Shown: positions 3,814 through 63,718 of the stretch, piece after piece
How positions within the stretch are numbered: position 1 is the stretch's first letter
Layout: each line of letters begins with the position of its first letter
NCBI GenBank assembly: GCA_965261065.1
Contig: OZ253444.1
Coordinates: forward strand, 7,414,902 to 7,478,901
DNA length: 64,000 bases
Reading direction: 5' to 3'
From: Bryobacterales bacterium
GTDB taxonomy: Bacteria; Acidobacteriota; Terriglobia; Bryobacterales; UBA6623
Notes under the pieces: generated by a model
Seen by the model: only the letters and a program-made list of their open reading frames with translations
Database searches by the model: none
What the model was told of the DNA's origin: nothing
Translations under genes and position numbers: made by a program

Positions 3814-3818
3814 TGTCG

Positions 3819-4172: not shown

Positions 4173-4190
4173 CTCCCGTCGTGATACCTG

Positions 4191-4394: not shown

Positions 4395-4967
4395 CTAGCT
4401 CTCTCTGGTTGCCGGAAGGACCTCGAAGACCTCGGCGAGGGGTTTGCCGGCGGGGTTGGTCAAGCGGTTGCATCGGCCATAGAGGGTCTGCTCACGGGCG
4501 TCGGCGAATGCATCTTGCAGGAACGTGTTCGCCTCGGTCTGGAAGAACCCTTGTGGAGTGGAGACATAGGAGACACGGTACTCGGTCAGAATGACGCCGA
4601 GCGGCTTTTGGCTTTGTCTAATCACTGGCAGCACTTCGGGCGGAAAGCGATCCAAGTAGATGATGATTGCCCCGGCCTCGACGGGAATTCGGTCGGGACC
4701 CGCCGTCAACACGACCTGGCGGTACAGGCTGTTTCCGTCACGCAGGACAGTGAGGGGGCGCAGGGTGATCGGCAGGCCCCAATAGCCGGCTAGCGTTCCT
4801 GTCATATCCCTCTCGTGGACGAGCAGGGAGCGATAGGGTTCGGGGATTTCCGTCGGTTCGATGGGCTCGATGTCCCGGATGACTTCCCGCGCAGAAGGAT
4901 CTGCCGACTGGAGGCGACGGAGGATCGCGACGATGTCGTCGAAGCAGTCAGCCATCTCTGTCAGCAT
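4395..4967 (-). CDS. Chorismate-lyase-like (UbiC/DUF98-type fold) protein
   Basis: 190 aa. The pattern ...LLVHERDMTGTLAGYWG...LYRQVVLTAG...PVEAGAIIIYLDRFP...KPLGVIL... resembles the chorismate pyruvate-lyase/DUF98 family. Assignment by eye only. Confidence 0.4.
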   Translation of the reverse strand: MLTEMADCFDDIVAILRRLQSADPSAREVIRDIEPIEPTEIPEPYRSLLVHERDMTGTLAGYWGLPITLRPLTVLRDGNSLYRQVVLTAGPDRIPVEAGAIIIYLDRFPPEVLPVIRQSQKPLGVILTEYRVSYVSTPQGFFQTEANTFLQDAFADAREQTLYGRCNRLTNPAGKPLAEVFEVLPATRES

Positions 4968-5023
4968 AACCTCTGTGCTTCCGGGTCGGCTCTTTACCAG
5001 ACGACGGTGAAATGGGTCCGCCG

Positions 5024-5084
5024 AGAGGCCCAGGCGGGCTTCGGGCGACGGAAAGGTAGGCGGAACCGGATTTCACGACAGCAA
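5024..5084 (+). repeat. Intergenic repeat, copy 2 of 2
   Basis: 48-nt core identical to 2206-2253. Lies 57 nt outside the start codon (4967) of the minus-strand gene. Confidence 0.85.
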
Positions 5085-5723
5085 TCTGCGAATGAGGTCT
5101 ATGTAGTTCATTGCGTACGGTTTACTCGTGCTCGCGGTCTCTGACTCCGCAAACCAGTTTTGGACAACACGGATCGAGGACTGGGGACCGTCAGTACCGG
5201 GTTGGGCGACGAGGAACCGTCGGCGGTCAGCCGGAACGTGGTATCGCGGAGATGCCACGCTCTTGCTTATCGCTGCCACACAGCGCGCCGACAAGCACTA
5301 GAGGATGTTGATCTGCACAACATTGGCCACAATGCCATCGACCGTAACGACGACGTCTACGAGGCCGCTTCCAATGAGGCTGCGCTCGATCAGTACGTTG
5401 AGTTGGTCAAGCCCGGCAAACTCACTCGACGGTGCGGGTCCAAAGATGGTTGTCATGGGTACGCCGTTGATCGTGACTTGCACGCTGCTGCCGTTCCGGA
5501 CGCCGGTTAAGAACAGCGAGAGAAACGCCTGATTTACCGGTCCCAGATCGATCGCCGTGGCCGAGACGAGGGCTGTTTCGGTGAGTTGGCTATCCACGAA
5601 ACGGAGCACATTCGTGGCCGGCAGGCCCGAGCCCGCGCCATTCGCGGTGAAGATGCCGGGCGCGACCTCGACGACATTCATGGCGATTGAATGGCTTCCG
5701 CCGCTGGCTCGCCGCACTGTTAG

Positions 5724-12071: not shown

Positions 12072-13971
12072 AGATCGGGTCGAGTGACGGGGATTGCGCC
12101 CCGGCACCCTCCCACACCACCGGACATACGGTTTTCCGTATCCGGCGGTTGGATCCAGCGACCTTACCTGCACGCCGCAAGATTCGATGGCACCACCAAC
12201 CCGTAGCGCTTCAGAGTGACGTTCGACAGCCCCGTGTGCAACCACACATGATGCGCCATACTCCACGCTCCACGACGCGTCGCGACTACACGCAGCAGCC
12301 CTTCGCCCACCCCCAGCCGCCGTAACGCTCTCTGGCGGCCGCGCTTCTTGTGCCAACGCAGCCAAAAGCACTTCCGCCTGTGTCGCCGGATCCAACCTTC
12401 CAGCCGAAAGACATTCCGACGCTGCTGGGCCAGCCGGTACTATCCCCACCAGCCCACCACGTATCGCCGCCACTCGTCGCGTAACGCCCGACTCGTGACA
12501 CTGCGACCACTGCGCCAAATCTCTCGCACCTTCTGCTTGAATCGTGCAACACTCTGCGGCGCTACTTCTCGCTGCCCTTGGCGGTTGATTCGAAACCCCA
12601 GAAACTTTCGCTCCCACGGCCTCCCTGCCCCGCTCTTGGCACGGTTCACTCGCAAACGCAGATGCCTCTCGATCCAGTCCCCGATCCCCGCCAACACTCG
12701 CTTCGCCGCCGCCTCGCTGCTCACATAGACGTTGCAGTCGTCGGCATAACGGCAAAAGCGCAGCCCGCGGTTCTCCAGTTCCCGATCCAGCGCATCCAGA
12801 TAGAGGTTCGCCAGCAACGGAGACAGCGGCCCGCCTTGCGGCGTGCCCTCCTCGCTGCGTACCACCACCCCCGCCGCCATCACCCCGGCCCGCAGATATC
12901 GTCCGATCAACCGCAACACCTTCTTATCCCGAATCACTTCCGCGATCCGCTGCATCAGAATGTCATGGTTGACGTGGTCGAAGAACTGCGCGATATCGAT
13001 ATCCACCACCCAGTCCTTGCCCTCGCGGACGTATTCTTGCGCCGCCCGAACGGCGTCGTGCGCGCTGCGCCTCGGACGAAAACCGTAGCTCGACTCGCTG
13101 AACCGCGGATCGAAAATCGGTTGCAACACTTGCAGCAATGCTTGCTGTACCACCCGATCCATCACCGTCGGTATGCCGAGCCGACGCGTCCCCCCGTTCG
13201 GCTTCGGGATGTCCACCCGCCTCACCGGGCTCGGCGTCCATCGCCCGGCCACGAGTTTCGCCCGCATCTTCGCACCGCGGCGCCGCCAATGAACTTCGAG
13301 TTCGTCGACGGTCATCCGATCGATCCCAGCCGCGCCGCGGTTGCGTTTGACCGCCGCCCGCGCCCGCGCCAAGTTCGGCTCGGCGACCACCTGGTCCATC
13401 AGATCTTCGTGCATCACTTTCTGTCGAGAGTCTCGCGACACTCGCCCTGGCTTCCACCGACCTCTGCCCGCAGCGGCTCCACCGCTTCTGCGTCGGCCTG
13501 CTCCCCGTTTCGTTCCCCTTAGCGGGAAAGAACCTCGCGGCCCGGGACTCCGGGAAACCGGTTGGGCGCTATGTCAGTCGCTCCTCTAGCCTTGCTCCTT
13601 GGTCCTTCGGCCCTTGGCTCCAGCGGCGTTACCCGCCTTTCTCGCTACTATGGCCTCTGCTGACTTCTCCTTCGCTCTCACCAAGGAGCTCTCCCCAGGT
13701 AAGGCGCTGTTTCTTTCCCTTCCTACCGTCCGGCTCTACCTCGCACGTCTGGATGGACTTTGGGCTTCACTGAGGCCAGCAAGCTTACCGCCCGTACGCG
13801 GCCTCTCTGCCGGTTCGTGTTCCTACGGTCGAAGGTTTGTTCCCCGCTGCCTTCAGCTTGGCCGCGCGGCTTGCGCCCCACGACTTCCACCTTGCGGTTC
13901 CCTACGGTTACCTCCATCGGTTGCGGTGAGTACGTTGCAACTCACAAGTAAACAGCCCATGCTGGGCACAC
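12072..13971 (-). mobile_element. Group II intron (IIC-like), about 1.9 kb; the 3' boundary is approximate
   Basis: The 5' end GTGTG is at 13971-13967. Domain V hairpin CCGCCGGAUACGG-AAAA-CCGUAUGUCCGGUGG lies at 12117-12148, with a 2-nt bulge and CGC at the catalytic-triad position. The RT/maturase ORF sits in domain IV. A short domain VI-like stem follows. Confidence 0.8.
12164..13441 (-). pseudogene. Group II intron reverse transcriptase/maturase with an in-frame TAG
   Basis: RT motifs are present (…GIPTVMDRVVQQA…, …FCRYADDCNVYV…). The ORF stops at TAG 12440-12442 (…RYVVGWWG*). The same frame continues with the maturase (X) domain YRLAQQRRNVFRLEGWIRRHRRKCFWLRWHKKRGRQRALRRLGV... to the TAA at 12164-12166. 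No endonuclease domain. Confidence 0.85.
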
Positions 13972-48797: not shown

Positions 48798-50030
48798 TCA
48801 TGTCCATGAACGGCGTCTCGATGCGACGTCCGATCTCAGAGTAACGGCCGTTCTCCCAGTTTGATCCATGTTGTACGACACAATCCCTGTGGACAGAAGC
48901 AGCCGCTCCGCATTGAATGGTTCCTTTCTGGTCAGCATCATCTCGACGAGCCAGTGTTCGAAAGCGTTCGCGGCGTGGTACTGGGAGTAGGGCCCGGGCC
49001 AGCCAAGCATCGAAATGATCGTCGGGTCCTTACGGCCTTCAATGTCGCCGGCGTAGGTCCACCCCACACCCCGAGCTGCGTATATCGCGGCCTTCGTCCC
49101 GTCACGATAGTCGACGATCGTCACCGTTGGCTCGCGGACAGTGTCCTGAAAGTGTCTCAGCTTCATGTCAAAGCTTTTCCGCACGGCGTCAAGCAGATTG
49201 CCCGCCCAAGGATTGCGGTCGGTCCACTTCCACACTTCAGGCCCTCGAATGCACTGCACCGCCTCGATGCCTGTCTCACCGCCCTTGCGGCGTTCCACAA
49301 AGCACTGGAGCACGTCGACACAATGGAAAAGGCTCCCCTCAGCCCCGGAGCCTCCAGCCACGACCGATGCCTTGATGGGCGTATCGGCGTCGATTTCGAT
49401 CTCGGGCTTGCGGTAGTAGAACGGGATGGAGGAACCGCCGTACAGCGGGAAGTCCAGTTCCCGGGATTTGTCAAACATCCACTTGGCCTCGTCCCAACTG
49501 GTGGAGAGGTGCTTGTCGTTAAAAACCGGCACCGAGCGCTTGCTCTGCTCGAAAACCCGGATAATCTGCTGGTAGAGCCACCAGCGGGGATAGTATTTCT
49601 GTCCCTTGAGATTGCTGTGATAAATCCCGTGCTCTCCGACGAGGACGACACCGTCCACGTCAAGTTCCTTCCCCCCGAGCGTGAGGGCTTCATTTACTCT
49701 GTTAAAGATGGGAATGCCTTTCTCTTCGCACACTTTCCGGCCCAATCCGCTTTCTTGAAGCTGATGGATGTAAACGGATACAACGTCCACCCGCGAAGGC
49801 GTACGGGCGCCCTGCCACCAATAACCGTCCAACAGCTTGGTGATGATCCAATCCGCATGTGATCCCGGAGCCGCCCAATAGGTAACGACACAGGCGATAC
49901 GAGGCCGTTTTTCCGCGGCCTGCGAAACAGTACCGGCTGCCATGCCGGCTAAGGCCGCCTTTCCGGACATTCCCAGCATTTCACGCCGGGTGAAGAGTGG
50001 GTTCGAGCGCATACGATGATTTTCGGTCAT
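48798..50030 (-). CDS. Tat-signal hypothetical protein (410 aa)
   Basis: TRREMLGMSGKAALAGMAAG N-terminus. Long uninterrupted ORF. No family recognised. Confidence 0.6.
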   Translation of the reverse strand: MTENHRMRSNPLFTRREMLGMSGKAALAGMAAGTVSQAAEKRPRIACVVTYWAAPGSHADWIITKLLDGYWWQGARTPSRVDVVSVYIHQLQESGLGRKVCEEKGIPIFNRVNEALTLGGKELDVDGVVLVGEHGIYHSNLKGQKYYPRWWLYQQIIRVFEQSKRSVPVFNDKHLSTSWDEAKWMFDKSRELDFPLYGGSSIPFYYRKPEIEIDADTPIKASVVAGGSGAEGSLFHCVDVLQCFVERRKGGETGIEAVQCIRGPEVWKWTDRNPWAGNLLDAVRKSFDMKLRHFQDTVREPTVTIVDYRDGTKAAIYAARGVGWTYAGDIEGRKDPTIISMLGWPGPYSQYHAANAFEHWLVEMMLTRKEPFNAERLLLSTGIVSYNMDQTGRTAVTLRSDVASRRRSWT

Positions 50031-50281
50031 GTGAAAACTCCCCGTGTTGGTAGATTACCGTTCGCAATCCAAGTTGAGGTTTCCCATCATTGATACTTGT
50101 CGTCCTCCTGCTCGGCTGGCAGGAATGGGCCGGGTTTCGATCAGTCGAGTAACAACTCCAGGATCCGCTCAACGTAGTCGTGCTCGGCCTCCGGGTACCA
50201 GAGCCTACCTTTCCGGAGGCTTGATCCAGACCGGCGGAACTCACCTTGCTTGGTTCGACCGGGTGGGGAGCTGAAGGTCTG

Positions 50282-50650
50282 TTACGATTCTTTGCCTAAC
50301 CGCTCGATCTTCGCCGCCATGACGAAGTCGCTTTCCGTAAGCCCGTCGATCTTGTGCGTCCACAGGTAAATCCCCACCTTGCCCCAGGCGAGGTGAATGT
50401 CGGGGTGATGACCCTCTCGCTCGGCAAGCTCGCCCACTCTGTTTGTGAAATCCAGGGCCTCCCGGAAGTTCTTGAAACGATACTGGCGCTCCAGATGATG
50501 CTCGTCCACGACAGTCCAGTGGGACAGCTGCACGGCCAGCGGCTCGATCTCTGCGCCCTTCAACGGTGGAACGCCGCCCCGACAAGGGATGCACTCTTTG
50601 TCAGCCAGGTCGGGCACTGCTCGTTCCTCTCCTGGTCGGCATGTTACCAA
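50282..50650 (-). CDS. Pterin-4-alpha-carbinolamine dehydratase
   Basis: 122 aa. ...RQYRFKNFREALDFTNRVGELAEREGHHPDIHLAWGKVGIYLWTHKIDGLTESDF... is the PCD signature. TTG start as called. Confidence 0.85.
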   Translation of the reverse strand: MVTCRPGEERAVPDLADKECIPCRGGVPPLKGAEIEPLAVQLSHWTVVDEHHLERQYRFKNFREALDFTNRVGELAEREGHHPDIHLAWGKVGIYLWTHKIDGLTESDFVMAAKIERLGKES

Positions 50651-51010
50651 AGCCGACTGCCTGCGATGACACCACTTTCCATGTGACGAGCATGGCGCGG
50701 TACAATTTGCCCGGCGGAAACTCGGATGAAGTGCCTGGGCTCCGGAGCCCAGGGCCCCAGCGCCAGTGAGAGGCTTTTTTTGTAGGTCACATCCAAGGGG
50801 GCTTTGTCAAGTTAACGACACGAAGGCGGTTTGGCCTGAAGATCGTCCGAGGTTTCTCCCCCTCAGTACGCACAGGTAGCCGTCTCCCAGTCCGAACAAA
50901 CGCTCATCGGCATCGCATACGCCTACGAACAGACGGCACACCACCGCCGCCCGCCGGAAGCCCTTCCCTAGGCTTCAAGAGTCCCGAGGGCGTCAACGTC
51001 GGATGGTACC

Positions 51011-51175
51011 GAGAAACGATTTCTCCCCGAAAGATGCGGGTTCAGAGCTTCGGCAACCGGTCACCTAGCAACCCCAAATGGTGTGCCCTCAGGCAGCTAG
51101 CGGGGATCTGGGCCGGGAGCAAGTGACATCGGTTGTTACCATTAGCAACCCCCACGGTGGTAGAATTGGACCGTC
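51011..51175 (+). promoter_or_regulatory. Conserved 5' module, copy A (palindrome GAGAAACGATTTCTC ... GCCCTCAGG ... TAGAAT)
   Basis: Aligns along its whole length with 59543-59708. Shared blocks: GAGAAACGATTTCTC, CAGAGCTTC, CCCAAATGG, GCCCTCAGG, CTAGCG.GGATCTGGGC, TCGGTTGTT, TAGAAT. Ends at the start codon. Confidence 0.75.
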
Positions 51176-52495
51176 GTGATCGGCACCACGATCTCCCACT
51201 ACCGCATCATCGAAAGGCCCGGGGAGGGCGGGTCACTTGGGGTCGTGCTCCACAGAGAGGTGCCCACTTCGTTCAATTCGAGGCCACGCCTCGCGTCCAG
51301 CGCGAACCACCGGCGCCTATGCATTGCTTGGATGGCTGGCCTGTTCGCCCTCTTGCTGGGCGCCTGCGGTTCAGGAAGCTCCGGAGACTTCGACGCGACG
51401 GACTTTGGCGCGGTCGCTGACGGCGCGACGGACAGCACCCAAGCGATCCAGTCCGCTATCGATGAGGCAAGCGCTGCGGGTGGGCGCGTTCTGGTGCCCC
51501 CGGCCGAAGCGCCGTACCTGATAAGCAAGACACTTCTCATCCGTGGGAGTGGCGTCGAGATCGTCGGCGAGGGCGCCACAATACGGTTCGCCGACAACGC
51601 GGCGGGCGAAGGCGACCCGACCGTCATCCTCGCGAGTGGCAGCGAAGACAACCCGATTCGCGATGTCGCGATCCGCGGGCTTACCGTCGACGCAAACTTC
51701 TATGCACAAGAAGGGGCCGAGCGCCCGCGGGGAATCGAATTTCGGTTTATTGGGGGCGCACGCGTTACCGACGTTACGATTCGGCGGCCCTTCGTCGGGC
51801 TCGACTTCGGACGCGGGTGTGTCGACGCCGAGGCGCGCAACGTGGTGATCACTGACTTCGCCGAGGATGGCTTCGACGCCAGCGGTGACGCCAACGAGTT
51901 TTCTGGCGCGAAGACCAGGGATATTCGATTCATCAACGTCGTGGCGCGCGATGCGCCCCGTGCCGATGGCAATGCTTTCGAAATCGAGGATGGTGTGGAG
52001 AACGTCCTCGTCGAGAATGCAACCGTCGAGAACGTCGCGGGCAACGGTTTTGGGCTGCGGAATCACTTTGTCGAAGGGAAGGAAGATCACTCGAGAAACG
52101 TCGAGTTGCGCAACGTCACTGTCCGCGGTACCGGCGGGCAATTCGCCATCTACGGCCGTTGCGCGCCTCGGGAAGGGTTCCCCAACAACAGCTATCACGA
52201 GATGAAGCTGACGAACGTCGAGACTGACGGCGCGGTATCCTTCGTCGGGCCGATCGAAGACCTCGAGATCACCGGTGGCAGCTTCGCTGCTATCTATCTC
52301 GGTTTCGAAGGACCGGACGATGTACCCGCCAAACAAAACGCAGTGGCCACCGCAAAGCTCCAAAAGCTGCAAGCAGAGCAACTTCGGATCAACGGGATGG
52401 ACGGTACCATAACCCTCTCCAATCTCACGCTCCCCAAGGGCCAGGAATCAGTCTCGATCGAAGGCAGCGGAGCCGATGTGCAGACCGACTGGTAG
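51176..52495 (+). CDS. Right-handed beta-helix (pectate-lyase-superfamily) protein, probable lipoprotein
   Basis: ...ATDFGAVADGATDSTQAIQSAIDEASAAGGRVLVPPA..YLIS... is typical of this superfamily. Lipobox LLLGAC at residues 59-64. Alternative start at ATG 51332. The first ~25 codons resemble a kinase N-terminus. Confidence 0.7.
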   Translation: MIGTTISHYRIIERPGEGGSLGVVLHREVPTSFNSRPRLASSANHRRLCIAWMAGLFALLLGACGSGSSGDFDATDFGAVADGATDSTQAIQSAIDEASAAGGRVLVPPAEAPYLISKTLLIRGSGVEIVGEGATIRFADNAAGEGDPTVILASGSEDNPIRDVAIRGLTVDANFYAQEGAERPRGIEFRFIGGARVTDVTIRRPFVGLDFGRGCVDAEARNVVITDFAEDGFDASGDANEFSGAKTRDIRFINVVARDAPRADGNAFEIEDGVENVLVENATVENVAGNGFGLRNHFVEGKEDHSRNVELRNVTVRGTGGQFAIYGRCAPREGFPNNSYHEMKLTNVETDGAVSFVGPIEDLEITGGSFAAIYLGFEGPDDVPAKQNAVATAKLQKLQAEQLRINGMDGTITLSNLTLPKGQESVSIEGSGADVQTDW

Positions 52496-52546
52496 CGTAG
52501 CGGCTCTGCCCTGGCCGCCAGATGCCATAGCCGTCGCATAGATGAC

Positions 52547-52640
52547 GAGAAATGATTTCTCATTGCGAAATCAGCCGTTGGGGCCTCTGGAACCGGTTGC
52601 CGACTGAACACAAATCGAGTCCCCTCAGGGGACAAGAACG
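52547..52640 (+). promoter_or_regulatory. Conserved 5' module, partial copy C
   Basis: GAGAAATGATTTCTC ... CCGACTGAACACAAATCGAGTCCCCTCAGGGGAC parallels copy B (CCGACTGAACCCAAATGGAGCGCCCTCAGGTGAC). Lies 270-370 nt upstream of the DUF1552 gene. Confidence 0.6.
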
Positions 52641-52912
52641 AAGCCGCTGGCGCGACGGACGCCTTCGGCGTAGGAGTGCGCTGAGCTAGGTTCTGGTCGG
52701 CAAGGGTAGATCCAACGACCTGGATCGGGGTTCGCCATCAGGCAGGAATCAAAGGGCCAGCCTACCGCAAGATCTTCGGATCTTGCGAATCGGCATCAGG
52801 GCGCAAGGGAGTGTATACTAGGGCCGTAAAGACGCGCGGCGTCAACGTTCTGCGTGACACCCACTTCAATCGCTCAGTGGGATGCGTTGACGTTATCCGC
52901 CGGGCATCGACC

Positions 52913-54262
52913 ATGAGATCGAATCAAGCAAACCGCCGGGTTTTCCTAAAGGCCGCGGGGATGAGCCTCGCTCTTCCTTGGTTGGAATCGGGCGCCGCGC
53001 TCTCGGCGGCCCGGACGGAACAAGCGGTCGGGCAGCCACCGATCCGTTTTGTGACGACTTTCTTCCCGTTGGGGGTAAATACTCATAAATGGGGAGCTTG
53101 CGGTTCGGGCGAAGATCTGACACTCGAGCCGACGCTTGAGCCGCTGGAAGTGATCAAGCACAAGGTCAGTGTGCTCCAAGGTTTGTCGCATCCGCATCTG
53201 AAGGATGTGCGCGGACATGCCGGCAAGGTCGCCTCGTTTCTGACAGGCGAGCCCGGCGGGCGGGACAACAACAAGTCAGGCGTTTCTATCGATCAGCGGA
53301 TCGCTGCGCGAATAGCTGACCAGACAGAGTTTCGTTCGCTGGTCCTGGGTGTTGCTCCCTCAAGAAACGGTCGCGGATTCTATGATTCCAGCATCTCCTG
53401 GCGGGGCCCTGACAGGCCGCTCGCCAAAGAGATCGATCCCGCCATGACTTTCGCGACTTTGTTCGCCGATAAGTCTTGGCTGAAGCGTGACGAGAGCGTG
53501 CTCGACTTTGTGCTCGACCAGGCTAAGCACCTGGAAACGCGGATCAGCGCCCAGGATAGTCAGACGTTGGCCGAGTACTTCGAGGGCATTCGCGAGTTAG
53601 AGCTGCGGATCGCGCGCCTAGACCGGGACACGACAGATTGGCAACGCCAGCAGGCAGGCGAGCTTTCCATCTCTCGGCGTTTTCATGCTGATGATCCGAG
53701 CGGCGCGGGCGAGACGCCTGATTTTGCGCTTTATCAACCAGAGAACTTCCGCGAACACACCCGCTTGATGCTTGATTTGCTCGTGTTGGCGCTACGAATG
53801 GATAAGACCCGGGTGCTGACATTCATGTTCGACAGCTATGGCCCGAAATACATGGACTTCAGCTTCCTGCCTGGCGTCACAGGCCAGTGGCACTCGTTGA
53901 GTCACCACAAAGAGACGCCGAGCTCGCTTCACCAGTATCACCTCATCAATCAATGGCATGTCTCACAATTCACGTACCTGCTGCAGAAGATGGATGAGGC
54001 GCAGGAAGGGGATCGGACCTTACTTGACAATTCGATGGTCATGATCGGGTCGGACATGTGGGACGGAAACCGCCATACGTGCACGGAGTATCCATTGCTT
54101 CTCGCCGGCAGTGGTGGGGGCCGGATCAAGACCGGGCGTGCTATCGATTTCGAGGATGGCTCAATGTCCCGGCTCTTCTTGTCGATTGCGGAAACCATGG
54201 GCACGCCCCTGGACGGATTCCAGGAAGCCTGCGAGTCGTTGGGTTCGCAACTAGCCGCATAA
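52913..54262 (+). CDS. DUF1552 protein (Tat-type signal)
   Basis: 449 aa from ATG 52913. N-terminus MRSNQANRRVFLKAAGMSLALPWLES is typical of the family. Followed by its usual DUF1592-type partner. Confidence 0.8.
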   Translation: MRSNQANRRVFLKAAGMSLALPWLESGAALSAARTEQAVGQPPIRFVTTFFPLGVNTHKWGACGSGEDLTLEPTLEPLEVIKHKVSVLQGLSHPHLKDVRGHAGKVASFLTGEPGGRDNNKSGVSIDQRIAARIADQTEFRSLVLGVAPSRNGRGFYDSSISWRGPDRPLAKEIDPAMTFATLFADKSWLKRDESVLDFVLDQAKHLETRISAQDSQTLAEYFEGIRELELRIARLDRDTTDWQRQQAGELSISRRFHADDPSGAGETPDFALYQPENFREHTRLMLDLLVLALRMDKTRVLTFMFDSYGPKYMDFSFLPGVTGQWHSLSHHKETPSSLHQYHLINQWHVSQFTYLLQKMDEAQEGDRTLLDNSMVMIGSDMWDGNRHTCTEYPLLLAGSGGGRIKTGRAIDFEDGSMSRLFLSIAETMGTPLDGFQEACESLGSQLAA

Positions 54263-54272
54263 GAACCTCTCC

Positions 54273-56651
54273 ATGAAGTCTGCCCGCATCGCTCGGCGAG
54301 GCCTCATCGGTCTTTGTGGTCTCGCTCTTATCCTTGGTCTGGGGATGATCCATGGGTCGGCCCTAGCGGCGAAGAAGGACGTCTCCCCCGTTTGGGATGC
54401 GAAGGTTCAGCCGATCTTCGCCCAATACTGTGTTGGATGCCATGGTCCTGAAACACAAATGGCCGGCTTGCGCCTAGACGATGCTGCAGCGGCGCTTAAA
54501 GGCGGCCTCAACGGGCCGGTGATCATCGCCGAGCAATCTTTGGAAAGTCGGCTCGTACAGCGTGTGTCGTTGCCTCGAACGGACGCGCGGGTCATGCCTC
54601 CTAACGGGAATCCTTTGCCGACCGAGGAACAAATCAGAGTCCTTGTCGAATGGATCGATGGGGGCGCGCTGCTGCCGGCGAGCGAAGTAGAATCGCTTTC
54701 TGAAGCGGAGGAGGCTCCGCAACCTGTGCCGTATTCGGTACTGTCCGGACCGGCTGAGGAGTTGACCTTCGACGAAAAGATCCATCCCTTCCTTCGCCAC
54801 TATTGTTATGACTGCCACGGCAAGAAGAGCCGCGAGGGCGGGCTCGCCATTGAGGACTACGCCGAACAATGGCCTGGCGAGGACCTGCGTGCCTGGCATC
54901 AGCAGTGGGGGAAGGTTGCGCGTTCGATCACCACCGGTGCGATGCCTCATCCAAGGCAGGAGCGGCAGCCTTCCGAAGAAGAACGGCAGCTGTTCGGCCT
55001 GTGGTTCGACAAGGAATTGGAGTCGCGCGTCACGCCCGACTCGTCCCGGCCAAGCAACCCGCGATTGCGGCAAATGACGGCGTTCGAGTACGACAACACG
55101 GTTCGTGAGCTGACGGGACTTGACCTGGGTCTCAGCAGCCTGACGCAGTCCGGCGGTGTGGCCAGTGACGGAGGCTTCCTGAACCAGGGCCGCGAGATGC
55201 AGCTGTCTCCCTCGAAACTCTCACGTTATTTACAGGCGGCGGATCAGGTCGTGGCCCGGGCTGCGATCGATCCGGACGTGGGCATCCGTTTTCATCCCGA
55301 ACCACGACCAGCTCGTTCCAAGCCCCCGAACGCGGCATCGCCGGCCGACTTGCGAACCACCGCCCAGCGGCACCTGTCCGCCTTTGCCGCCCGAGCTTAC
55401 CGCCGTCCTCTGCACGAAGAGGAAATCGCCGGCCTGATGGGCCTTTATGACCAGCAGATGGAGAGCGGCAAGGGCTTTGAGGGTGCCTGCCGGCAGGTGT
55501 TGCAGGGCATTCTTGCCTCGCCTCAGTTTGTTTATTTGGCCGAGGAGCATCGCTGGGCAAGAAAGGAAATCAACTGGGGCGACAAGAAGCGGGAGAAGTC
55601 CGAGGCGACAGCGCTCATGGCCGACCACGAGGTGGCGTCGCGGCTTTCGTATTTCTTGTGGTCTGCTCCGCCTGACGACGAATTGATCCGTTTGGCCATT
55701 GACCGCCGGATGCAAGATTCGGAGGTATTGAAGGCTCAGGTGAAGCGAATGCTGTCAGATCCGAAGGCGGCATCTCTGGCAACACAGTTCGCCGGGTACT
55801 GGCTCAAGTTCAACAAGATCGCGGACCATCTCGACATCAATCGGGAGCGCTTTCCGGAATTCACCGAATCGTTGCAGGGGGCGATGTATGACGAAGTGCA
55901 CCACTTTGTCGAGGAGATCATTCGCCGTGATCTGAGCATCTTGAGTCTTCTAGACGCTGATTTCACGTTTGTGAACGGGGAGCTCGCGGCGCACTACGGA
56001 ATCGATAACGTCAACGGCACCGAGTTTCAGAAAGTGCAATTTGGCGATCGCGACGGGCGCGGCGGCCTGCTGGCTATGGCCGGGATTCTGAGTCTGACTT
56101 CGCATCCTGACCGCCGCAGTGCGGTGGAGCGCGGCGCCTATATCCTTCGGGAGATTCTCGGTACTCCGCCGCTACCGCCGCCAGCCACGGTGGGAAAACT
56201 GGAGGATGTTGCAACCAAAGACGGGCGCCAGTTGAGTCTGGCTGAGTCGATGGAACGGCACCGCCGAGAGACGCGTTGCGCGGGATGCCACCGCCGCATG
56301 GACCCCCTCGGCCTTGCTCTAGAAGAATTCGACGGGATCGGACGCCGCGTGACTCCGGAGTTCGTCAACCCCGAGCTGGCCGCCGATCTGTATGCCCTGC
56401 CGGACGGCACCATCCTGCGAGGACTCGATGAACTCAAGCGCTATCTTCTGGAAGGCCCGCAGCGACGGAAGTTCGTCGATAACTTTTCGAAGCGTCTCAT
56501 GACGTACGCTTTGACCCGCGATCTACAGTCCGGCGACTTCTACACCTTACTCTCGATGCGCCGTGCTCTCGAAGAGAACGGATACCGTTTGTCCGCGGCG
56601 ATCAATACGCTTGTGACAAGCGAGGTGTTCCTTCAGCGGGCGGAAGAATAG
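54273..56651 (+). CDS. DUF1592/DUF1595/DUF1587/DUF1588/DUF1585-type multidomain protein with cytochrome-c-like CxxCH motifs
   Basis: 792 aa. CVGCHG and CYDCHG motifs. ...RLSYFLWSAPPDDEL... and C-terminal ...CAGCHRRMDPLGLALEEFD... are typical of this family. Confidence 0.8.
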   Translation: MKSARIARRGLIGLCGLALILGLGMIHGSALAAKKDVSPVWDAKVQPIFAQYCVGCHGPETQMAGLRLDDAAAALKGGLNGPVIIAEQSLESRLVQRVSLPRTDARVMPPNGNPLPTEEQIRVLVEWIDGGALLPASEVESLSEAEEAPQPVPYSVLSGPAEELTFDEKIHPFLRHYCYDCHGKKSREGGLAIEDYAEQWPGEDLRAWHQQWGKVARSITTGAMPHPRQERQPSEEERQLFGLWFDKELESRVTPDSSRPSNPRLRQMTAFEYDNTVRELTGLDLGLSSLTQSGGVASDGGFLNQGREMQLSPSKLSRYLQAADQVVARAAIDPDVGIRFHPEPRPARSKPPNAASPADLRTTAQRHLSAFAARAYRRPLHEEEIAGLMGLYDQQMESGKGFEGACRQVLQGILASPQFVYLAEEHRWARKEINWGDKKREKSEATALMADHEVASRLSYFLWSAPPDDELIRLAIDRRMQDSEVLKAQVKRMLSDPKAASLATQFAGYWLKFNKIADHLDINRERFPEFTESLQGAMYDEVHHFVEEIIRRDLSILSLLDADFTFVNGELAAHYGIDNVNGTEFQKVQFGDRDGRGGLLAMAGILSLTSHPDRRSAVERGAYILREILGTPPLPPPATVGKLEDVATKDGRQLSLAESMERHRRETRCAGCHRRMDPLGLALEEFDGIGRRVTPEFVNPELAADLYALPDGTILRGLDELKRYLLEGPQRRKFVDNFSKRLMTYALTRDLQSGDFYTLLSMRRALEENGYRLSAAINTLVTSEVFLQRAEE

Positions 56652-56756
56652 CTGTAGGCGGCTGTGGAAGTCGATCGATAGGCCACCCGAAGTCTTGTTC
56701 CGACGAGACCTTTTGCTGTTCGTCCCAGCTTTCTTTGTTGAAGACGCTCCTACGGG

Positions 56757-57902
56757 CTAGTTCTTTGACCGTGTGATAGATGGTCTTTCATAGCCGAGCT
56801 TACGGCGCGCCGTTTTGCGGTCGAATCTCCAGTCGATCTTAACCCGCTCGCGGTTGACTCGACGGTTCCAAGCGGCTGCTTCGCTGCGCAGCTTTGCCAA
56901 ATCCTCGATGCGCCGCTTGCCCAAGCATGGCCTCGAGAACAGTCCGCTCTCGATTTCCGCCTGGTTCAACCAACTGCCGTGCTTCGGCGTGTAGTGCGGA
57001 GTGAAGCGATCCCAAATCTCGCCGCCGAACTGCTCGCCGCACAGGTCCGTCAGCGACTTGCGGCTGTGCGTCGAGAGGTTGTCCATCACCAAGTGGATCG
57101 TCTCCGCTTCGGGGTAGGCCATGGCCACCTCAAACAGCGCCTTGGCAAACGCCACGCCTGAGCGGTCCGGCGTCACGAACGTGAACTGCCGGCCCGCTTT
57201 GGGCTCGACCGCGCAGAAGACATGGGCGGTCCCGCGGCGTTCGTATTCGCTGTCATAACGAGCCTCGCGTCCCGGCCCGGCGGGCGTCGGGGGGCGAACG
57301 TCGGCGTGCAGCGTGACCGGCTTCTCGTCGAGGCAGACGACGGGATGCGCCTGATGATAGGGCCTCTCATATGTTTCCAGCACATCTTCCATGCGCGCGA
57401 TGTACTCGTCAGTCAGCTCCGCCACGCACCACATTTTTTTCCGCCACGGCTGGAGGTCGTGGCGGAGAAGCAAGATGCGGATGGTCTCTCGGCCCACGCG
57501 CGGGAGCAGTCGTCGTTGGACGGCTTCGTGGGCCACCAGCCGTACCGTCCAGCGGGCGCGCCCTCTGGGCGGATCGCTGCAGACCATGGCGATGATGCGC
57601 TGGCGTTGCTGGTTCGAAAGCAAGCTTGCCGCACCGGGCCGCTGCTGGTCGTAGCGCGCACGTTCGAGCCCGCCCTGCTGATAGCGCCGGGCGAGATGAC
57701 GAACCGATTGCCGTGTCATGGGCAGGACTTCGGCGATCGGCGGCGCGCCCATTCCTTCGGCGAGCCGCAGCAAAGCCACCGCGCGCATCGCCACGCGGAC
57801 CTGCTCGATGCCGCTGCCTAGAACCTTCTTCAGCGCCGCTTGATCTTTCTTGGAAACTTTCACACGCAGTGCGGCACGATGCATACCTCCAGCATGCCCC
57901 AA
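56757..57902 (-). CDS. IS630-family transposase (single ORF)
   Basis: 381 aa (likely start MHRAAL.. at 57884). HTH region followed by ...VCLDEKPVTLHA..., ...HLVMDNLSTHS..., ...HYTPKHGSWLNQAEIE.... Confidence 0.88.
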   Translation of the reverse strand: MGHAGGMHRAALRVKVSKKDQAALKKVLGSGIEQVRVAMRAVALLRLAEGMGAPPIAEVLPMTRQSVRHLARRYQQGGLERARYDQQRPGAASLLSNQQRQRIIAMVCSDPPRGRARWTVRLVAHEAVQRRLLPRVGRETIRILLLRHDLQPWRKKMWCVAELTDEYIARMEDVLETYERPYHQAHPVVCLDEKPVTLHADVRPPTPAGPGREARYDSEYERRGTAHVFCAVEPKAGRQFTFVTPDRSGVAFAKALFEVAMAYPEAETIHLVMDNLSTHSRKSLTDLCGEQFGGEIWDRFTPHYTPKHGSWLNQAEIESGLFSRPCLGKRRIEDLAKLRSEAAAWNRRVNRERVKIDWRFDRKTARRKLGYERPSITRSKN

Positions 57903-57955
57903 AACATTTCGATCCGAACATGTTTCTTTGTAAAATATTCAGACGGTCAAGGAAC
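56760..57955 (-). mobile_element. IS630-family insertion sequence no. 1 (about 1196 bp)
   Basis: Inverted termini are GTTCTTTGACCGTGTGATA and the reverse complement GTTCCTTGACCGTCTGAATA. TA is present on both flanks (56758-56759 and 57956-57957). Confidence 0.85.
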
Positions 57956-59295
57956 TAGTTAAGCTTAGGTCTTTCTCGAAACGGAACCTGCCGCGGACGG
58001 TACTCTTCCAGCTTGGCTTGGTCGAGGACCACGCCGAAACCGGGTCCGTCCGGCACACGCAACCGACCCGATTCGTAGGTGAAGACCGGAGTCACCACAT
58101 CGTCTTCGAGATGTCCCGGCCCGATGAGGTCCGAGGCCACCGTGAGTGCCTTCGACGACACACCGAGATGTAGGGCCGCCGCCGTTCCAGGACCGAGTTC
58201 AACGGTACTGCCCAGCAAGACCTGAAGCCTGGCAGCTTCGGCCAACTCGGCTAGCCGCCTGGCGCGGCTGAGGCTCCCCGTTTGGCTCGGAATGATGTTA
58301 AAGACATCAACCGCTTGGTGCCGCACCAGCGCTACTGCAAACTCGTCTGAAAAGTCGCCCACATGTTCGATGATCTTGGTCGGGACCGCCCGACGCACAC
58401 GGGCCAGTGCCAGCGCCGCTTCGTCGGGATTCTCGTTGACGAGATGGGGGCGGTTCTTCGCAATATCCCGTGAAGCTGCCTTCACAGGAGTTTCCACGGC
58501 ATCCACACCCAGTTCCGCCAACTTCCTGATGTTCTCGATGGCTTCCCCCTCATCCCACGTTCCACTGGGATCGACCTTCAAGTACGCCCCGGGACCGGCG
58601 ATCTTCCGGATGGCTGCCACGTTCTCGCTATCGGCGGCGAGATCCGAACCCACTTTCAACTTGAAGGCACGAAACCCCTGGGAAACCTTTTCCTCGATTC
58701 CCTGCTCGTCCAACCTAGAGTGGCGTACATATGCCACCCACGAAACCGGCACGTGCGTTCGATGCCGCCCGCCAAGCAGCCGATAGGCCGGAACCCCCGT
58801 CACTTTCCCTACGAGGTCCAGCAGAGCCATATCGACTGCGGCCCACAACATCCGCCGCAGTTCCACGTGCCAGTGCTGGGGAATCGCCTCGGCCACTTTC
58901 TTACTCAGCCGATGGCGCTCGGAAGCATTGGCTCCCATCAGTTGCTCAGAGAGAAAACGCTCGAACTCACCAACCCCAGGCGCATGCCACGCAGGCTCCA
59001 CGTCGGACAACTCTCCGACTCCCGTGGTGCCGTCGCCGGATATGAATTCGATCAACAGGTAGAGCGACGCTGGCTTGCCCGAGGGATCGGTGCGAGCCAT
59101 GCGAGTCCGATAGATGCGTGGCATCTCGACCGGATGCACACGTATCTCGGCAATATGGAACGAAGATTGAACCCGCCCTTTGGTAGGGGTCTCGCGGTCC
59201 CGGTTGCGACAGGCGGTCATCACCCATGGGCCACCAACGCCAGCTACCGCTCGGCCGAGCAGATTACGTCTTGTCAAGAAGCCCAATCCTAACAC
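57955..59295 (-). CDS. Enolase-superfamily (mandelate racemase/muconate lactonizing enzyme-like) protein with Tat/lipoprotein-type signal
   Basis: ...LTRRNLLGRAVAGVGGPWVMTAC..., then ...GDGTTGVGELSDV..., ...FKLKVG..., ...KVDPSGTWDE.... Provisional GTG start at 59295; the ORF track starts at 59388. Confidence 0.7.
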   Translation of the reverse strand: MLGLGFLTRRNLLGRAVAGVGGPWVMTACRNRDRETPTKGRVQSSFHIAEIRVHPVEMPRIYRTRMARTDPSGKPASLYLLIEFISGDGTTGVGELSDVEPAWHAPGVGEFERFLSEQLMGANASERHRLSKKVAEAIPQHWHVELRRMLWAAVDMALLDLVGKVTGVPAYRLLGGRHRTHVPVSWVAYVRHSRLDEQGIEEKVSQGFRAFKLKVGSDLAADSENVAAIRKIAGPGAYLKVDPSGTWDEGEAIENIRKLAELGVDAVETPVKAASRDIAKNRPHLVNENPDEAALALARVRRAVPTKIIEHVGDFSDEFAVALVRHQAVDVFNIIPSQTGSLSRARRLAELAEAARLQVLLGSTVELGPGTAAALHLGVSSKALTVASDLIGPGHLEDDVVTPVFTYESGRLRVPDGPGFGVVLDQAKLEEYRPRQVPFRERPKLN

Positions 59296-59363
59296 GGGAG
59301 AGCGCCTGGCCCAGGCGGTCCAATAACTCCGCTTCTTTAACTGGGCCGCTAGCCAGTCATAAC

Positions 59364-59373
59364 GGGGGGGGGG
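59364..59373. repeat. G10 homopolymer (C10 on the minus strand) in the divergent intergenic region
   Basis: Counted directly. Lies upstream of the probable start of the enolase-like gene. Confidence 0.9.
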
Positions 59374-59542
59374 CGGGCGAAGCCACATCTCTGAGATGCC
59401 GACGACGCGGGCGTGTGGACAGACTGGTTCAACGCTGCGCCGTCAGTGCGGATTTGAGATCTATGGACGATCGGATACAGGTCCTCGTACAGCCCGCTCA
59501 CGCTAGAATCTTGGGCGCAAGCGTCACCGTCGGGTAGATACT

Positions 59543-59708
59543 GAGAAACGATTTCTCGCTGAACGATGCAGGGTGCAGAGCTTCCTCAACCAGGCACCGA
59601 CTGAACCCAAATGGAGCGCCCTCAGGTGACTAGCGAGGATCTGGGCGGGTAGCGAGTGGGTTCGGTTGTTCCCGCCATCTATTTGAATCGCGCTAGAATC
59701 GGCGTGTC
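59543..59708 (+). promoter_or_regulatory. Conserved 5' module, copy B, directly upstream of the Ser/Thr kinase gene
   Basis: See copy A. TAGAAT at 59694-59699, 9 nt before the TTG start at 59709. Confidence 0.75.
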
Positions 59709-62433
59709 TTGATCGGCCAAACCATCTCGCACTACAAGATCACCGAGAAGCTCGGTGAAGGCGGGATGGGTGTCGTCTATAAGGCCACCGACACCGAACT
59801 CAACCGGCCCGTTGCCCTCAAGTTTCTCGCGCCGCACCCGCTCCAAGATGAAGAAGGCCGCAAGAGGTTCCGGCGCGAAGCGCAGGCGGCTGCGGCGCTC
59901 GACCACCCTAACATCTGCACCGTTTACGAAATCGGTCAGGCCGATGATCAAAGCTTCATCGCCATGGCCTTCCTCGAGGGCCGGCCGCTGAGCAAAAAGA
60001 TTGGCGATGGTCCTCTGAAGCTTCCCGAGGCCCTCTCGATCGCGATCCAAATGGCTGAGGGCTTGGAAGCCGCGCACGAGAAAGGCATTGTCCATCGCGA
60101 CATCAAGCCCGACAACGTGATGTTGATGAAGGGTTCACGCGGGCTCGTGAAGTTGATGGACTTCGGGCTGGCGCAGCTTGCTGAAAGCTCAAAGCTGACC
60201 CGCGAGGGTACGACGTTAGGGACTCCGATCTACATGTCCCCTGAGCAGGCGCTCGGGGAACCGACCGATAGCCGCTCGGATGTCTGGGGACTCGGCGTCG
60301 TTCTCTACGAGATGGTGGCAGGGCGGCCACCGTTCCAAGGCGAGGTCGATCAAGCCGTCATCTATGCCATTGTCAACGAGCAGCACGGACCGCTGACCGC
60401 CCTGCGCACGGGAGTGCCAAAGGAGCTTGAACGGATCGCTGACAAGTGCCTGGCGAAAGATGCCGAGGAGCGCTACCAGCACGTCACCGATCTGCTTGTG
60501 GATCTGCAAGCCTGCCGCCGCGCTCTGGAACCCGGGACACCAAAGTCTGGCGCGAGGGCCACGCCTGTCAATCGAGCGACGCTCGCAGCCGCCGGCGCTG
60601 CGGTGGTTCTAGCGGGTCTGGGCTTAGCTTGGTGGCTCACGCGCTTCTCCCAGCCAGCCCCTCCCCCCCCCCCCCCCCCAATACAAACTGACCCAGATTA
60701 CACGCGACACGGGTTACACCGCCGATCCGGCTCTTTCGCCCGACGGCAAACTGCTGGCTTATGCTTCGGACCGCGACGGCGATGGGAACCTCGATATCTG
60801 GGTGCAGCAACTGACCGGCGGGGGAAATCCGGTCCGCCTGACTCAGCACGAAGCCGACGACTACGAGCCGTCATTCTCGCCCGACGGTAGCCAAATCGTC
60901 TTTATTTACGACCGCGATGATAGCGGGATTTACGTGGTTCCGGCGCTCGGCGGAAGTCCGACACGCATTGGACGTGGCGGGCGAGGGGAGAGGATATCGA
61001 CACCCTGTTTCTCTCCAGATGGGAAGTGGGTCAGTTATTCTCGACTTAGGAAAGATAGCGATTGGCAATACTTCATCCGTATTGAGATCGTCCCGGCTTC
61101 CGGCGGTCCACCGCAGGCCGTGGAGATGGGCCTGCCAATTGCCATGGCACCGATCTGGTCACCCGACGGACAGCATCTGATGTTTATAGGGAGCGAGGAG
61201 CCGCTTGTAAGTGGCAAGCAGATGAACCTCGACTGGTGGCTTGGGCCCGCCGCGGGAGGCGAGCCCGTTCGACTAGGAGCTAGAGGGCTATTCGAAGGAC
61301 GTGGAATCGTACCAGCGAGAACCACCGATGTCTTTTACAGGTATTTCCCGGCTCCTCGCGCTTGGCTAGCTGACGGTAACCGGGTAGTCTTCACTGGGGC
61401 GATCGTTGGTGCGGCCGCCAATCTGTGGCAGGTTCGAATCTCACCCAGCGACGCAAGACTTATCGGTGAGCCCCAGCGGCTCACCTCGGGAACAGGCGAG
61501 GAAGACCCTTCCGCCTCCCATGACGGCCGAATCGCGTTCGTTAACCCAGCGCGCGATGGGGATATCTGGAGCTTGCCGCTCAACGCCAATCGCGCCGAGG
61601 TGCGCGGAGAACCGGAGAGGGTCGTCTCAGGACTGAGCGACGAGCGGCACCCATCGATCTCGGATGATGGGCAAAAGCTTGCCTACGTGTCAGACCGCGC
61701 CGGTAATCTCGATATCTGGCTTCATGACCTGGAAACCGGCGAGGACACGCCTATAACGATCACTCTGGAGAGCGAGCACCGCGGAATGATTTCACCCGAC
61801 GGTTCGATGGTCTCGTTCGTCCGCCAGGAGCAAGACCAAGTCAACCTGTACGTGATGGACCTCGTGGAAAGGAGAGCGAAGCGCTTGGTCGAGGGCGTCG
61901 GCAGCGTGTTTGACTGGATGCCGGGAGGCAAACGAATCCTGTACTACACGCCTCCGCCTATACGCTGGAAGACCGTGGATGCGGAGACAGGTGATCAAGC
62001 CGATGTCGATCTCACACACCCCGAGTACCAACCGGCAGCGCTTCGATTCTCTCCCGATGATGAGTGGCTCGCGTTCACTCTTGCGGTCCAACCCGAATGG
62101 CTGCTCTTCATTTCCCATATCGAGCAGGGCCAACCAACCGCACACGACGGATGGATTCAGATCACCAAGGATTCGGTCGCTAGCCGCTCTTGGTGGTCAC
62201 CCGACGGAAACACACTCTACTTCACGGATCTTCGCGACGGGTTCCGCTGCCTCTATGCCCAGCCTTTGGAGCCTGCAACCAAGAAGCCGCAAGGGTCCCT
62301 GAAGTCAATACAGCACTTCCACGGGCGCGTTCGCCCCGTCGCTGGAGGGACCAGGACCAGCGATCGTCTTTATCTCCGGCTTAGCGAACGCAAAGCCAAC
62401 ATCTGGCTGGCCGAGCCGGTGGCGGCTCAGTAG
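59709..62433 (+). pseudogene. Ser/Thr protein kinase - TM - TolB-like (PD40) beta-propeller gene, frame-shifted in a C17 tract
   Basis: Kinase motifs GEGGMGVVYKA, VHRDIKPDNVML and MDFGLA. TM segment AAAGAAVVLAGLGLAWWL. The +1 frame continues from the tract as QYKLTQITRDTGYTADPALSPDGKLLAYASDRDGDGNLDIWVQQL... into ORF 60802-62433. Confidence 0.85.
60663..60679 (+). repeat. C17 homopolymeric tract inside the kinase-TolB gene
   Basis: Counted directly: CT followed by 17 C, then A. Encodes the poly-Pro linker just after the TM helix. Confidence 0.95.
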
Positions 62434-62476
62434 CGAACAACTGGCGTGAAGGCTCCCCGCGCCGCGAACACAACTA

Positions 62477-63570
62477 TTGACTCCCGCAAATTATTATGAC
62501 ACTTTTTGATAGTTTGGAGCATCTATATATGTATGGGCAACCCCAAAGGTGTGAAGCGGGATTTCAAGGCCCTGGAGAAGCGCCGTTTCGAAGCGATGCG
62601 GCTGCTCGACCAAGGCCACAATCAGTCCGAGACGGCAAGACGGCTGAAAGTCGCTCGCCAAACCGTCAGTGCGTGGCGGCGGCAATACCGCGAGCAGGGT
62701 GCGGCCGGACTCCGCCAGGCCGGGCGCGCCGGACGCAAGCCGCTCCTCGATGCCGCACAACGCGAACGCCTGACGTCGCTGTTGCTGGAAGGCCCGCAAG
62801 CCCACGGCTTCCCCACGCCCCTGTGGAGCTGTCCGCGGGTGGCTCGGCTGATCGGAGACGAGTTCGGGGTCGACTACCACGAAGGCCACGTCTGGAAGAT
62901 CCTGCGAGCGCTCGACTGGAGCCCGCAACGCCCGGTCGGAAAGGCGCGCGAGCGCAACGAAGAGCAGATCCGCACCTGGAAGCGCAAGACCTGGACGCGC
63001 ATTAAAAAAAAGCCCAAAACGAAGGCCGTACGCTCGTCTTCATCGACGAAAGCGGATTGAGTCAGAAGCCGCATCGCTGCCGCACCTGGGCGCCACGCGG
63101 CCAAACACCGGTGCTGCAGTTTAACTTCAATTGGGAGAAGCTTTCCGTCTCGGCGGGGCTGACGCTGCGTAACTTCTACTTTCGGCTCTATCCCGGTGCG
63201 ATCGGCAAAGAGCAAGTGATCGACTTTCTCAAGGCGTTGGTACGTCATATCGATCGGCCGCTGCTGATCGTCTGGGACCGGCTGCCTGCGCACCGTAGCC
63301 GCCTGGTGCAAGAGTTCATCCAACTCTCCGAAGGCCACATCGCAACCGAGTACTTGCCACCCTATGCGCCGGAGTTGAATCCGGTGGAATACATCTGGGC
63401 TTACTGGAAGCAGCACGAGTTGCCGAACGTCTGTCCGAAGGACTACGGCGAGCTGAACGAGCGGGTCCGCAAGGCACTCCGCCGCATGCACCGCAAACCG
63501 CGTTTGATCACGGCCTTCTGGAAACAGTCTTCTCTTTGCTTCGAGTGACGGGATATTATGCGGGACTCAA
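62477..63570 (+). mobile_element. IS630-family insertion sequence no. 2 (about 1094 bp)
   Basis: Inverted termini are TTGACTCCCGCAAATTAT and the reverse complement TTGAGTCCCGCATAATAT. TA is present on both flanks (62475-62476 and 63571-63572). Confidence 0.85.
62533..63548 (+). CDS. IS630-family transposase made from two frames (orfA 62533-63060, orfB to 63548) via a -1 shift at A AAA AAG
   Basis: orfA carries the HTH region. The -1 frame from the A8G run (63004-63012) reads KKAQNEGRTLVFIDESGLSQKPHRCRTWAPRGQTPV..., the canonical continuation of IS630 transposases. Confidence 0.8.
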
Positions 63571-63718
63571 TAAGCCCTTCGAAACGAACCACATAGCCTC
63601 CGTTGGTCGTTAGATGTCGCGAAATCCGGTACCGTCCACCTTTCCGTCGGCCCGCCCTCAGAAGCTCGTCGAAGGGGTAGAACTCCGCTCAGACCAAGGC
63701 GCAGTGTTGTGAACGCAC

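Follow-up and report, generated by a model that had tools for sequence, protein, structure and literature searches.

The window analysed here is a 64,000-nt stretch of the genome of a Bryobacterales bacterium (contig OZ253444.1, positions 7,414,902 to 7,478,901) and is part of a single 8.96-Mb contig. It contains repeated copies of a module, designated F1, that stands ahead of a Ser/Thr kinase gene and of a second open reading frame (ORF) with a kinase-like start. F1 is an old, multi-copy, unannotated and discrete non-coding unit limited to one family of soil Acidobacteria. Our tentative reading, to which we give a probability of roughly 40%, is that the module is a transcribed non-coding RNA or leader that is conserved by its sequence rather than by a fold.

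The initial annotation had recognised three copies of the module in the window (copies A, B, and C; Table 1). Alignment with MAFFT confirmed that copies A (50990-51200) and B (59522-59735) pair from end to end, with all of the shared blocks that had been listed. The distance from the central palindrome to the start codon was likewise as described: 165 nt in A (51011 to 51176) and 166 nt in B (59543 to 59709). Copy C was correctly called partial; it pairs with only the first ~110 nt of A and B and has neither the distal and proximal promoter-like boxes (P1 and P2, described below) nor the 3' end. Copies A and B were 79% identical over 153 nt (blastn, E = 2e-29), and an nhmmer search with a profile built from the first copies retrieved eight full-length F1 copies from the genome (E = 1e-52 to 1e-58), values that exclude a chance resemblance. 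The same search yielded ~5 partial copies and ~15 short matches to the last 50 profile positions only, so that the sharing had been seen correctly but the count of three had not. With these further copies, and others in related genomes, the module is not a mere recent local duplication. The genes behind it had been called unrelated; however, the ORF behind A, which continues as a pectate-lyase-like beta-helix protein, starts with a kinase head (VIGTTISHYRIIERPGEGG..), and A and B are therefore paralogous units. We infer that all three copies are paralogues of one unit, with B standing at a split kinase gene, A at a kinase-head fusion, and C surviving as a decayed fragment.

The conserved unit runs for ~160 nt, from the distal CGCTAGAAT box (P1) through CGGTTGTT. 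A length of ~165 nt counted from the palindrome had been proposed, but the unit begins ~35 nt further 5', at a block (..CCCTCGTAC.GCC.GCCCACGCTAGAATGTT..) that forms a second TAGAAT box. P1 was exact in ~46 of 58 aligned copies and fitted TAnnnT in ~51 of 58 (counts made by eye on the alignment). It ranks among the best-conserved blocks, also in orphan copies, and its CGC context is the commonest 3-mer preceding leaderless-type -10 boxes genome-wide. Inspection of the sequences found no start codon 6-10 nt past P1. The paired positions of the palindrome are conserved but invariant within F1, and P2 lies ~25 nt 3' of CGGTTGTT.

The limits of the unit were evident from comparisons of non-orthologous copies. 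From ~20 nt before P1 to CGGTTGTT (profile positions 0-175, ~175 nt), 98% of such pairs could be aligned; over the ~100 nt that follow, where P2 and the ~25 initial kinase codons lie, the share fell to 20-30%, and in the body of the kinase gene it was 2%. Up to 100 nt of additional sequence on the 5' side of P1 are common to 13-40% of the copies; when read as codons, this long-form extension is a coding-sequence (CDS) terminus (..WIDPSPSVRI*). P1 and P2 in copy B form a 13-nt near-identical direct repeat, 190 nt apart. Their likeness is one of general promoter context and not a target duplication; as a target-site duplication the repeat was rejected, the within-copy excess being marginal (p = 0.02, with non-independent orthologues). 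A sigma-54-like TGG-N10-TGC in the upstream extension of one subfamily was discarded because it was not conserved by eye.

A first survey detected F1 in 10 of 41 relatives; within the family, 15 of 77 genomes were positive, from six of 12 genera, and no copy was found among 16 genomes of two sister families. Positive relatives carry 10 or more copies each (up to 15 matches were scored per genome), and the same blocks are conserved across the six genera. A total of 66 distinct copies were gathered from relatives, and the 60 that aligned well were used for gene-context counts. The copies are concentrated in regions rich in insertion sequences (ISs) and keep their flanks and position across species of the same genus. 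Near-identical recent copies within a genome were absent except for one larger duplication in one relative (G005). In a single genus (g4), two comparisons (L036 vs L043, L057 vs L058) revealed orthologous upstream flanks that are 85-98% identical, yet lead into different module subfamilies or unrelated downstream DNA. The breakpoints fall at the 5' or 3' edge of the module, which suggests recombination between dispersed copies.

The gene context of the 60 copies was dominated by incomplete kinase starts or none. Only eight copies precede an intact kinase. In another 11, the kinase head that follows ends prematurely around codon 12-46 (most at 20-30) or runs on into another gene as a fusion; the kinase-head/beta-helix fusion of copy A, for example, recurs in two relatives (G001 and G057). 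Six copies have a P2-like box and a start codon followed by at most a degenerate kinase head, and the remaining 35 have no P2 and no kinase start downstream. Among the copies of this genome, those at genome positions 2146452-2146659 and 6841336-6841546 are orphans, and kinases B and H each have a module. Viewed from the side of the genes, the genome holds 46 kinase-type N-termini (M/V-IGQTISHYRI..), 23 of them intact (open for at least 400 aa). Most of the intact kinases lack the module as well as a TAGAAT-N9 start, and most begin with ATG. Of 16 N-termini with P2-type similarity, only five are long, and kinase starts with TAGAAT-N9 are mostly truncated at codons ~20-45. The proposal of a regulon signature shared by diverse genes is not borne out by these counts: eight of 60 copies stand at an intact kinase, 35 have no kinase start, and most intact kinases do without the module.

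Constraint on the module was assessed against the adjacent coding sequence. The eight intact kinases that have a module were 0.32-0.63 identical at 4-fold sites, mostly ~0.42 and so saturated, with whole-CDS nucleotide identities of 0.62-0.82. Identity of the modules beside these kinases was 0.58-0.77 (about 0.68). The first 25 codons (window 59709-59783 and its paralogues) reached 0.67-0.95 nucleotide identity, which suggests that the 5' end of the presumably leaderless kinase mRNA is under nucleotide-level constraint. Over the 99 strongly conserved columns of the module, identity was 0.915 in copies without a kinase vs 0.896 in copies at an intact kinase, and private changes affected ~1.5% vs ~1.8% of the cells (our arithmetic on singleton counts). 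As a test of site-specific constraint, the singleton analysis is biased by its design, changes in variable columns being rarely singletons, and only the rate in orphan vs linked copies was used. Orphan copies are thus equally conserved, and the module is maintained independently of the downstream gene; these comparisons show constraint at the level of its sequence.

The proximal box was examined together with similar boxes across the genome. Downstream of TATAAT and TAGAAT boxes, ORF starts (at least 120 aa) were much commoner at 6-10 nt than at 3-5 nt: 20 of 27 TATAAT-N6 boxes and 18 of 40 TAGAAT-N6 boxes precede an ORF, against about 10% at N3-5. TACAAT boxes share the enrichment at 6-10 nt. 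In total, 179 leaderless candidates with TA[ACGT]AAT boxes were detected, only 10 of which are kinases. Their boxes favour a G two bases upstream and CGC as the top preceding triplet, and no -35 signal emerged among them. Judged from these spacings, leaderless expression seems to be common in this acidobacterium. At P2, ATG, GTG, and TTG are interchangeable at one aligned start position with TAGAAT-N9 spacing. The published signal of leaderless genes is a TANNNT that precedes the start codon by ~10-12 nt (Zheng et al. 2011, PMC3160421); P2, a TANNNT box within 6-12 nt of the start and accompanied by no Shine-Dalgarno sequence, agrees with it. The first option of the initial annotation, that the proximal TAGAAT is the -10 box of a nearly leaderless mRNA, is supported by the genome-wide spacing, the variable start codon and the match to this published signal. 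P2 is thus well supported as a predicted leaderless promoter, and the kinase mRNA would be leaderless. The TAGAAT 9 nt before a variable start and the lack of a Shine-Dalgarno sequence are what P2 shares with leaderless promoters (PMC3160421); these promoters explain only the last ~20 nt, and not the 160-nt module or a P1 with no ORF behind it.

F1 has relatives in a second family, F2, which matches it from GGATAG to GGTTGTT over an equal length; this homology rests on a consensus comparison and weak profile matches, a joint F1+F2 profile having been F1-dominated and having recruited no F2. Of 24 genomes in the family, 16 contain F2 (up to 20 matches scored per genome), and these represent eight genera; this genome has about 27 matches, and none were found among 16 genomes of the sister families. 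It starts in the coding tail ..VQNWYEEFRDREQD, the C-terminus of PD40 kinases, whose last codons read ..NWYEEFRDREQD; kinase H ends at such a match. F2 relatives have no P1; their first nucleotides overlap a kinase stop codon or follow it directly, and they would therefore be transcribed anyway. Several continue to GGTTGTT, then P2, and then the next kinase. On these comparisons, F1 is a branch of the larger 'kinase-junction' family F2 in which the upstream kinase tail has apparently been replaced by another CDS remnant and P1. At the position of the palindrome, the arms in F2 are GCGAA/TTCGC, GCGAT/ATCGC, or GGGAT/TCCC. For this helix in 32 sequences, 71.3% of positions were paired vs 66.3% in shuffled alignments (8/500), with 12 compensatory cells vs 8.1 (16/500). 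It is suggestive that the dyad symmetry is kept across the wider family via partly compensatory changes.

The 3' end of the module coincides with the target of a mobile element. The relative G005 carries a 2.5-kb element in ~30 copies (93-100% identity) that encodes a tyrosine recombinase (Phage_integrase) and an IS91-type Y2 transposase. Of 29 junctions examined, at least 28 place it directly after the ..(A/G)ACGGTTGTT, GCGTTGTT, or GGGTGTT of an F1/F2 module, and one copy follows another copy's own ..AAGGTGTT end. Among 20 further copies checked, 19 follow ..TGTT, and the DNA upstream is F1 or F2. In one case, the continuation of the module (ATCACCAGGTATC..GGTAGAATC..ATG) resumes past the IS, the right end of which is ..AAGGTGTT. 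The insertion point corresponds to CGGTTGTT in copy B, and the candidate target is the module end ..GAACGGTTGTT. This IS91-like element is strictly site-specific and targets a repeated non-coding element. Its bodies are 99-100% identical, vs a difference of ~12% between the adjoining modules.

In the reading that we favour, F1 would be transcribed in sense from P1, and F2 as a 3' untranslated region (UTR) of the upstream kinase or by read-through from it. The product would be a non-coding RNA or long leader of ~150-160 nt, with selection on its primary sequence and not on a stable fold, and it would act independently of the gene behind, for example by protein binding or base-pairing. We prefer an RNA because it would account best for the retention of P1 together with the body in orphan copies, and for a promoter-like box in the variant that has lost its upstream gene. 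A discrete 3' end of the module is supported by the insertion of the IS91-like element exactly after ..GGTTGTT in diverged F1/F2 copies of G005.

A number of results weigh against an RNA. With default settings, RNAalifold placed 0 pairs on the module alignment. Ribosum-scored folds shift with the alignment and the sub-region used; the best of them had 84.3% of positions paired vs 83.4% after shuffling and 19 compensatory cells vs 14.2 (46/500). Averaged pair probabilities were below 0.2 except for two pairs at 0.21. A terminal CCGAT/ATCGG hairpin before TTGTT showed no covariation (85 of 500 shuffles reach the observed value), and mutual information consisted mostly of non-Watson-Crick subfamily signals. 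Neither an intrinsic terminator nor a canonical -35 was found at the module, and an end is marked only by the steep loss of conservation and by GGTTGTT as the site of IS insertion. Duplexes predicted between a module RNA and the 5' end of the kinase gene were no more stable than those of shuffled sequences (z = +0.5 to -2.0). The patchy distribution and the multi-copy state also fit a selfish repeat.

The alternative that fares best is control at the DNA level, and we consider it somewhat unlikely. The module would then be a platform of protein sites that sets the activity of P2 and P1 and was duplicated with the kinase genes. Candidate sites are the palindrome GAGAAAYGATTTC, the TAGCGAG direct repeat with a distance of 19-20 bp, and recurring YGAG and GGAT motifs. 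By our count, the repeats lie at about -55 and -75 from P2, a box that has no detectable -35 and a fixed spacing from module to start. The primary sequence is conserved without covariation and in blocks around a variable centre, as such sites would be; yet this conservation is nearly continuous (~100 of 167 columns), far more than in typical operators, and is equally strong in the 35 of 60 copies that have lost P2 and the gene to be controlled. Also at odds with a control region is that F2 relatives begin inside a coding tail.

A selfish or neutral repeat is a less likely alternative still. Here, the module, P2, and the first ~25 kinase codons would have spread by copying or by repeat-mediated rearrangement within IS-rich clusters of kinase genes, and conservation would reflect descent from a few master copies and no host function. 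The patchy occurrence (15 of 77 genomes, each positive genome having 10 or more copies) suits this explanation, as do the IS-rich surroundings, the flank breakpoints at the module edges, and the fact that most module-linked kinase starts are truncated at codons ~19-28 while most intact kinases have no module. It does not agree with the lack of near-identical recent copies within a genome (the larger G005 duplication excepted), with positions that are stable across species of a genus, or with the same blocks recurring in six genera; paralogues are 70-80% identical while the adjacent synonymous sites are saturated. As for a mechanism of transposition, the module lacks both terminal inverted repeats and target duplications, the similarity of the P1 and P2 boxes is weak (p = 0.02), and no associated transposase was found, the G005 IS being 99-100% identical against a module difference of ~12%. 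In the segment 59380-59720 around copy B, a search for terminal inverted repeats and target duplications found none, only weak internal inverted repeats and the P1/P2 repeat. A miniature inverted-repeat or other non-autonomous transposon was accordingly rejected: it is contradicted by the missing terminal repeats, by paralogues of 70-80% identity, and by flanks kept in same-genus genomes.

That the module is a structured leader of the riboswitch type, made from P1 as part of the kinase mRNA and regulating the start behind it, is very unlikely. In its favour, the module stands between a promoter-like box and a start codon with a spacing that does not vary, and a hairpin could arise from the palindrome, for which F2 offers partly compensatory variants. 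Against it, Rfam has no match at E <= 10, neither a consensus fold nor covariation was detected, the majority of copies stand before no gene that they could control, and P2 would supply the kinase with a leaderless promoter of its own. The initial annotation had offered a structured 5' UTR or cis-regulatory RNA as its second option and pointed to Rfam. Rfam 15 at the gathering threshold matched only group II intron pieces (12074-13873) in the whole window and nothing at the module, and at E <= 10 the region 50000-60500 gave two chance matches elsewhere and none at the module. This option failed on Rfam, on the RNAalifold consensus, and on covariation, which did not exceed controls. A position in the 5' UTR of a regulated gene is not consistent either, with 35 of 60 copies lacking P2 or a kinase start. 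Two further element types were rejected. A protein-coding or small ORF is contradicted by a mean of 1.5-2.1 stops in each of the six frames across copies, and ARAGORN detected no tRNA- or tmRNA-like element in 50800-59900.

A more specific form of the favoured reading can be stated, although we regard it as improbable as a whole. F1 and F2 may be an undescribed family of sequence-constrained RNAs, made from a leaderless-type promoter or as kinase 3' UTRs, which would act in trans on leaderless PD40 kinases and the 3' end of which would serve as the landing site of an IS91-plus-integrase element.

Table 1. Features of the F1 and F2 elements and neighbouring genes (window positions unless another locus is given).
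Feature	Position	Strand	Remarks
Copy A, F1 module	50972..51176	+	nhmmer E = 3e-52
Copy A, P1 (degenerate)	50969-74		TAGGCT
Copy A, palindrome	51011-25
Copy A, 3' edge of core	51130-37		CGGTTGTT
Copy A, P2	51161-66		TAGAAT; GTG start at 51176
ORF behind copy A	51176..52495	+	Kinase head, then beta-helix protein
Copy C, decayed partial module	52518..52635	+	Profile positions 18-135; palindrome 52547-61; E = 2e-18
Copy B, full F1 match	59500..59709	+	nhmmer profile positions 2-212; genome 7474401-7474610; E = 9e-57
Copy B, CDS-tail remnant	59417..59457	+	..ADDAGVWTDWFNAAPSVRI*; 20 codons; stop TGA 59455-57; from long-form alignment
Copy B, P1	59504..59509	+	Distal -10-like box, cgcTAGAAT
Copy B, palindrome	59543..59557	+	GAGAAACGATTTCTC, 6+3+6
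Copy B, direct repeat	59631-37 and 59650-56	+	TAGCGAG...TAGCGAG; conserved in F1
Copy B, 3' edge of universally conserved core	59663..59670	+	CGGTTGTT
Copy B, P2	59694..59699	+	Proximal TAGAAT, 9 nt before TTG 59709
Ser/Thr kinase (Pkinase) and PD40 propeller gene	59709..62433	+	Split in two ORFs (59709-60890, 60802-62433)
Degenerate ..NW..* kinase tail	62434-62476		Parted from F2 element by IS630
F2-type relative, 3' flank of kinase B	63571..63708	+
Second F2-type remnant	5034..5144	-	Preceded by degenerate ..VVQNWF.. tail
IS91-like example locus L086	G005:C12:2352500-2360200		IS at ~3481-6011; also L087, L088, L089-L108

Other mobile or repeated elements were seen in the window. The IS630 element behind kinase B (62477-63570) interrupts ..ACTAAG.. 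at its TA, where the degenerate kinase tail had its ancestral TAA stop. The group II intron RNA domains at 12074-13873 (RF00029, RF01998, RF02001) lie on the minus strand. A 1059-aa ORF, also on the minus strand (5746-8925), encodes a repeat-rich, secreted-type protein apparently fused to a C-terminal DDE transposase-like part (..HFPPGTSKWNKIEHRLFSY..) and is probably the trace of an in-frame IS insertion.

In soil Acidobacteria with large genomes, Ser/Thr kinases of the PD40/TolB type number in the dozens. The module is an unannotated, selectively maintained element at the junctions of such kinase genes, with dozens of copies per genome when F2 is counted. Should it be transcribed, it would rank with the earliest candidates for a regulatory RNA family peculiar to this lineage and would offer a direct handle on kinase regulation and leaderless expression in Acidobacteria. 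Should it not be, it would still be a useful marker of the duplications, decapitations, and rearrangements in the history of the kinase family.

Among known systems, the 'cuckoo' small RNAs of Rhizobiales are a multi-copy, context-hopping family with conserved stem-loops and rho-independent terminators. The module resembles them in its diverged paralogues per genome, its own promoter-like box, a body of ~150 nt, its varied neighbours, and its restriction to one lineage. It differs from them in that no fold or terminator is supported, and in that its expression is a prediction. Correia (NEMIS) elements of Neisseria and ERIC elements are dispersed intergenic repeats of 100-200 nt that contain promoter elements and are co-transcribed with their neighbours; both have terminal inverted repeats, and Correia has a TA target duplication. 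The module has neither feature, and its copies are old, occupy the same positions in different species, and are linked with a kinase head. Finally, ISs that target repeated extragenic elements are known from IS1397 and ISKpn1, which insert into BIMEs, and from the REP-targeting ISs of Pseudomonas. The IS91-like element of G005 is comparable to these in that at least 28 of 29 copies examined share one insertion point within a repeated non-coding element, but it combines an IS91-family Y2 transposase with a tyrosine recombinase, and its target is a 170-nt, non-palindromic module.

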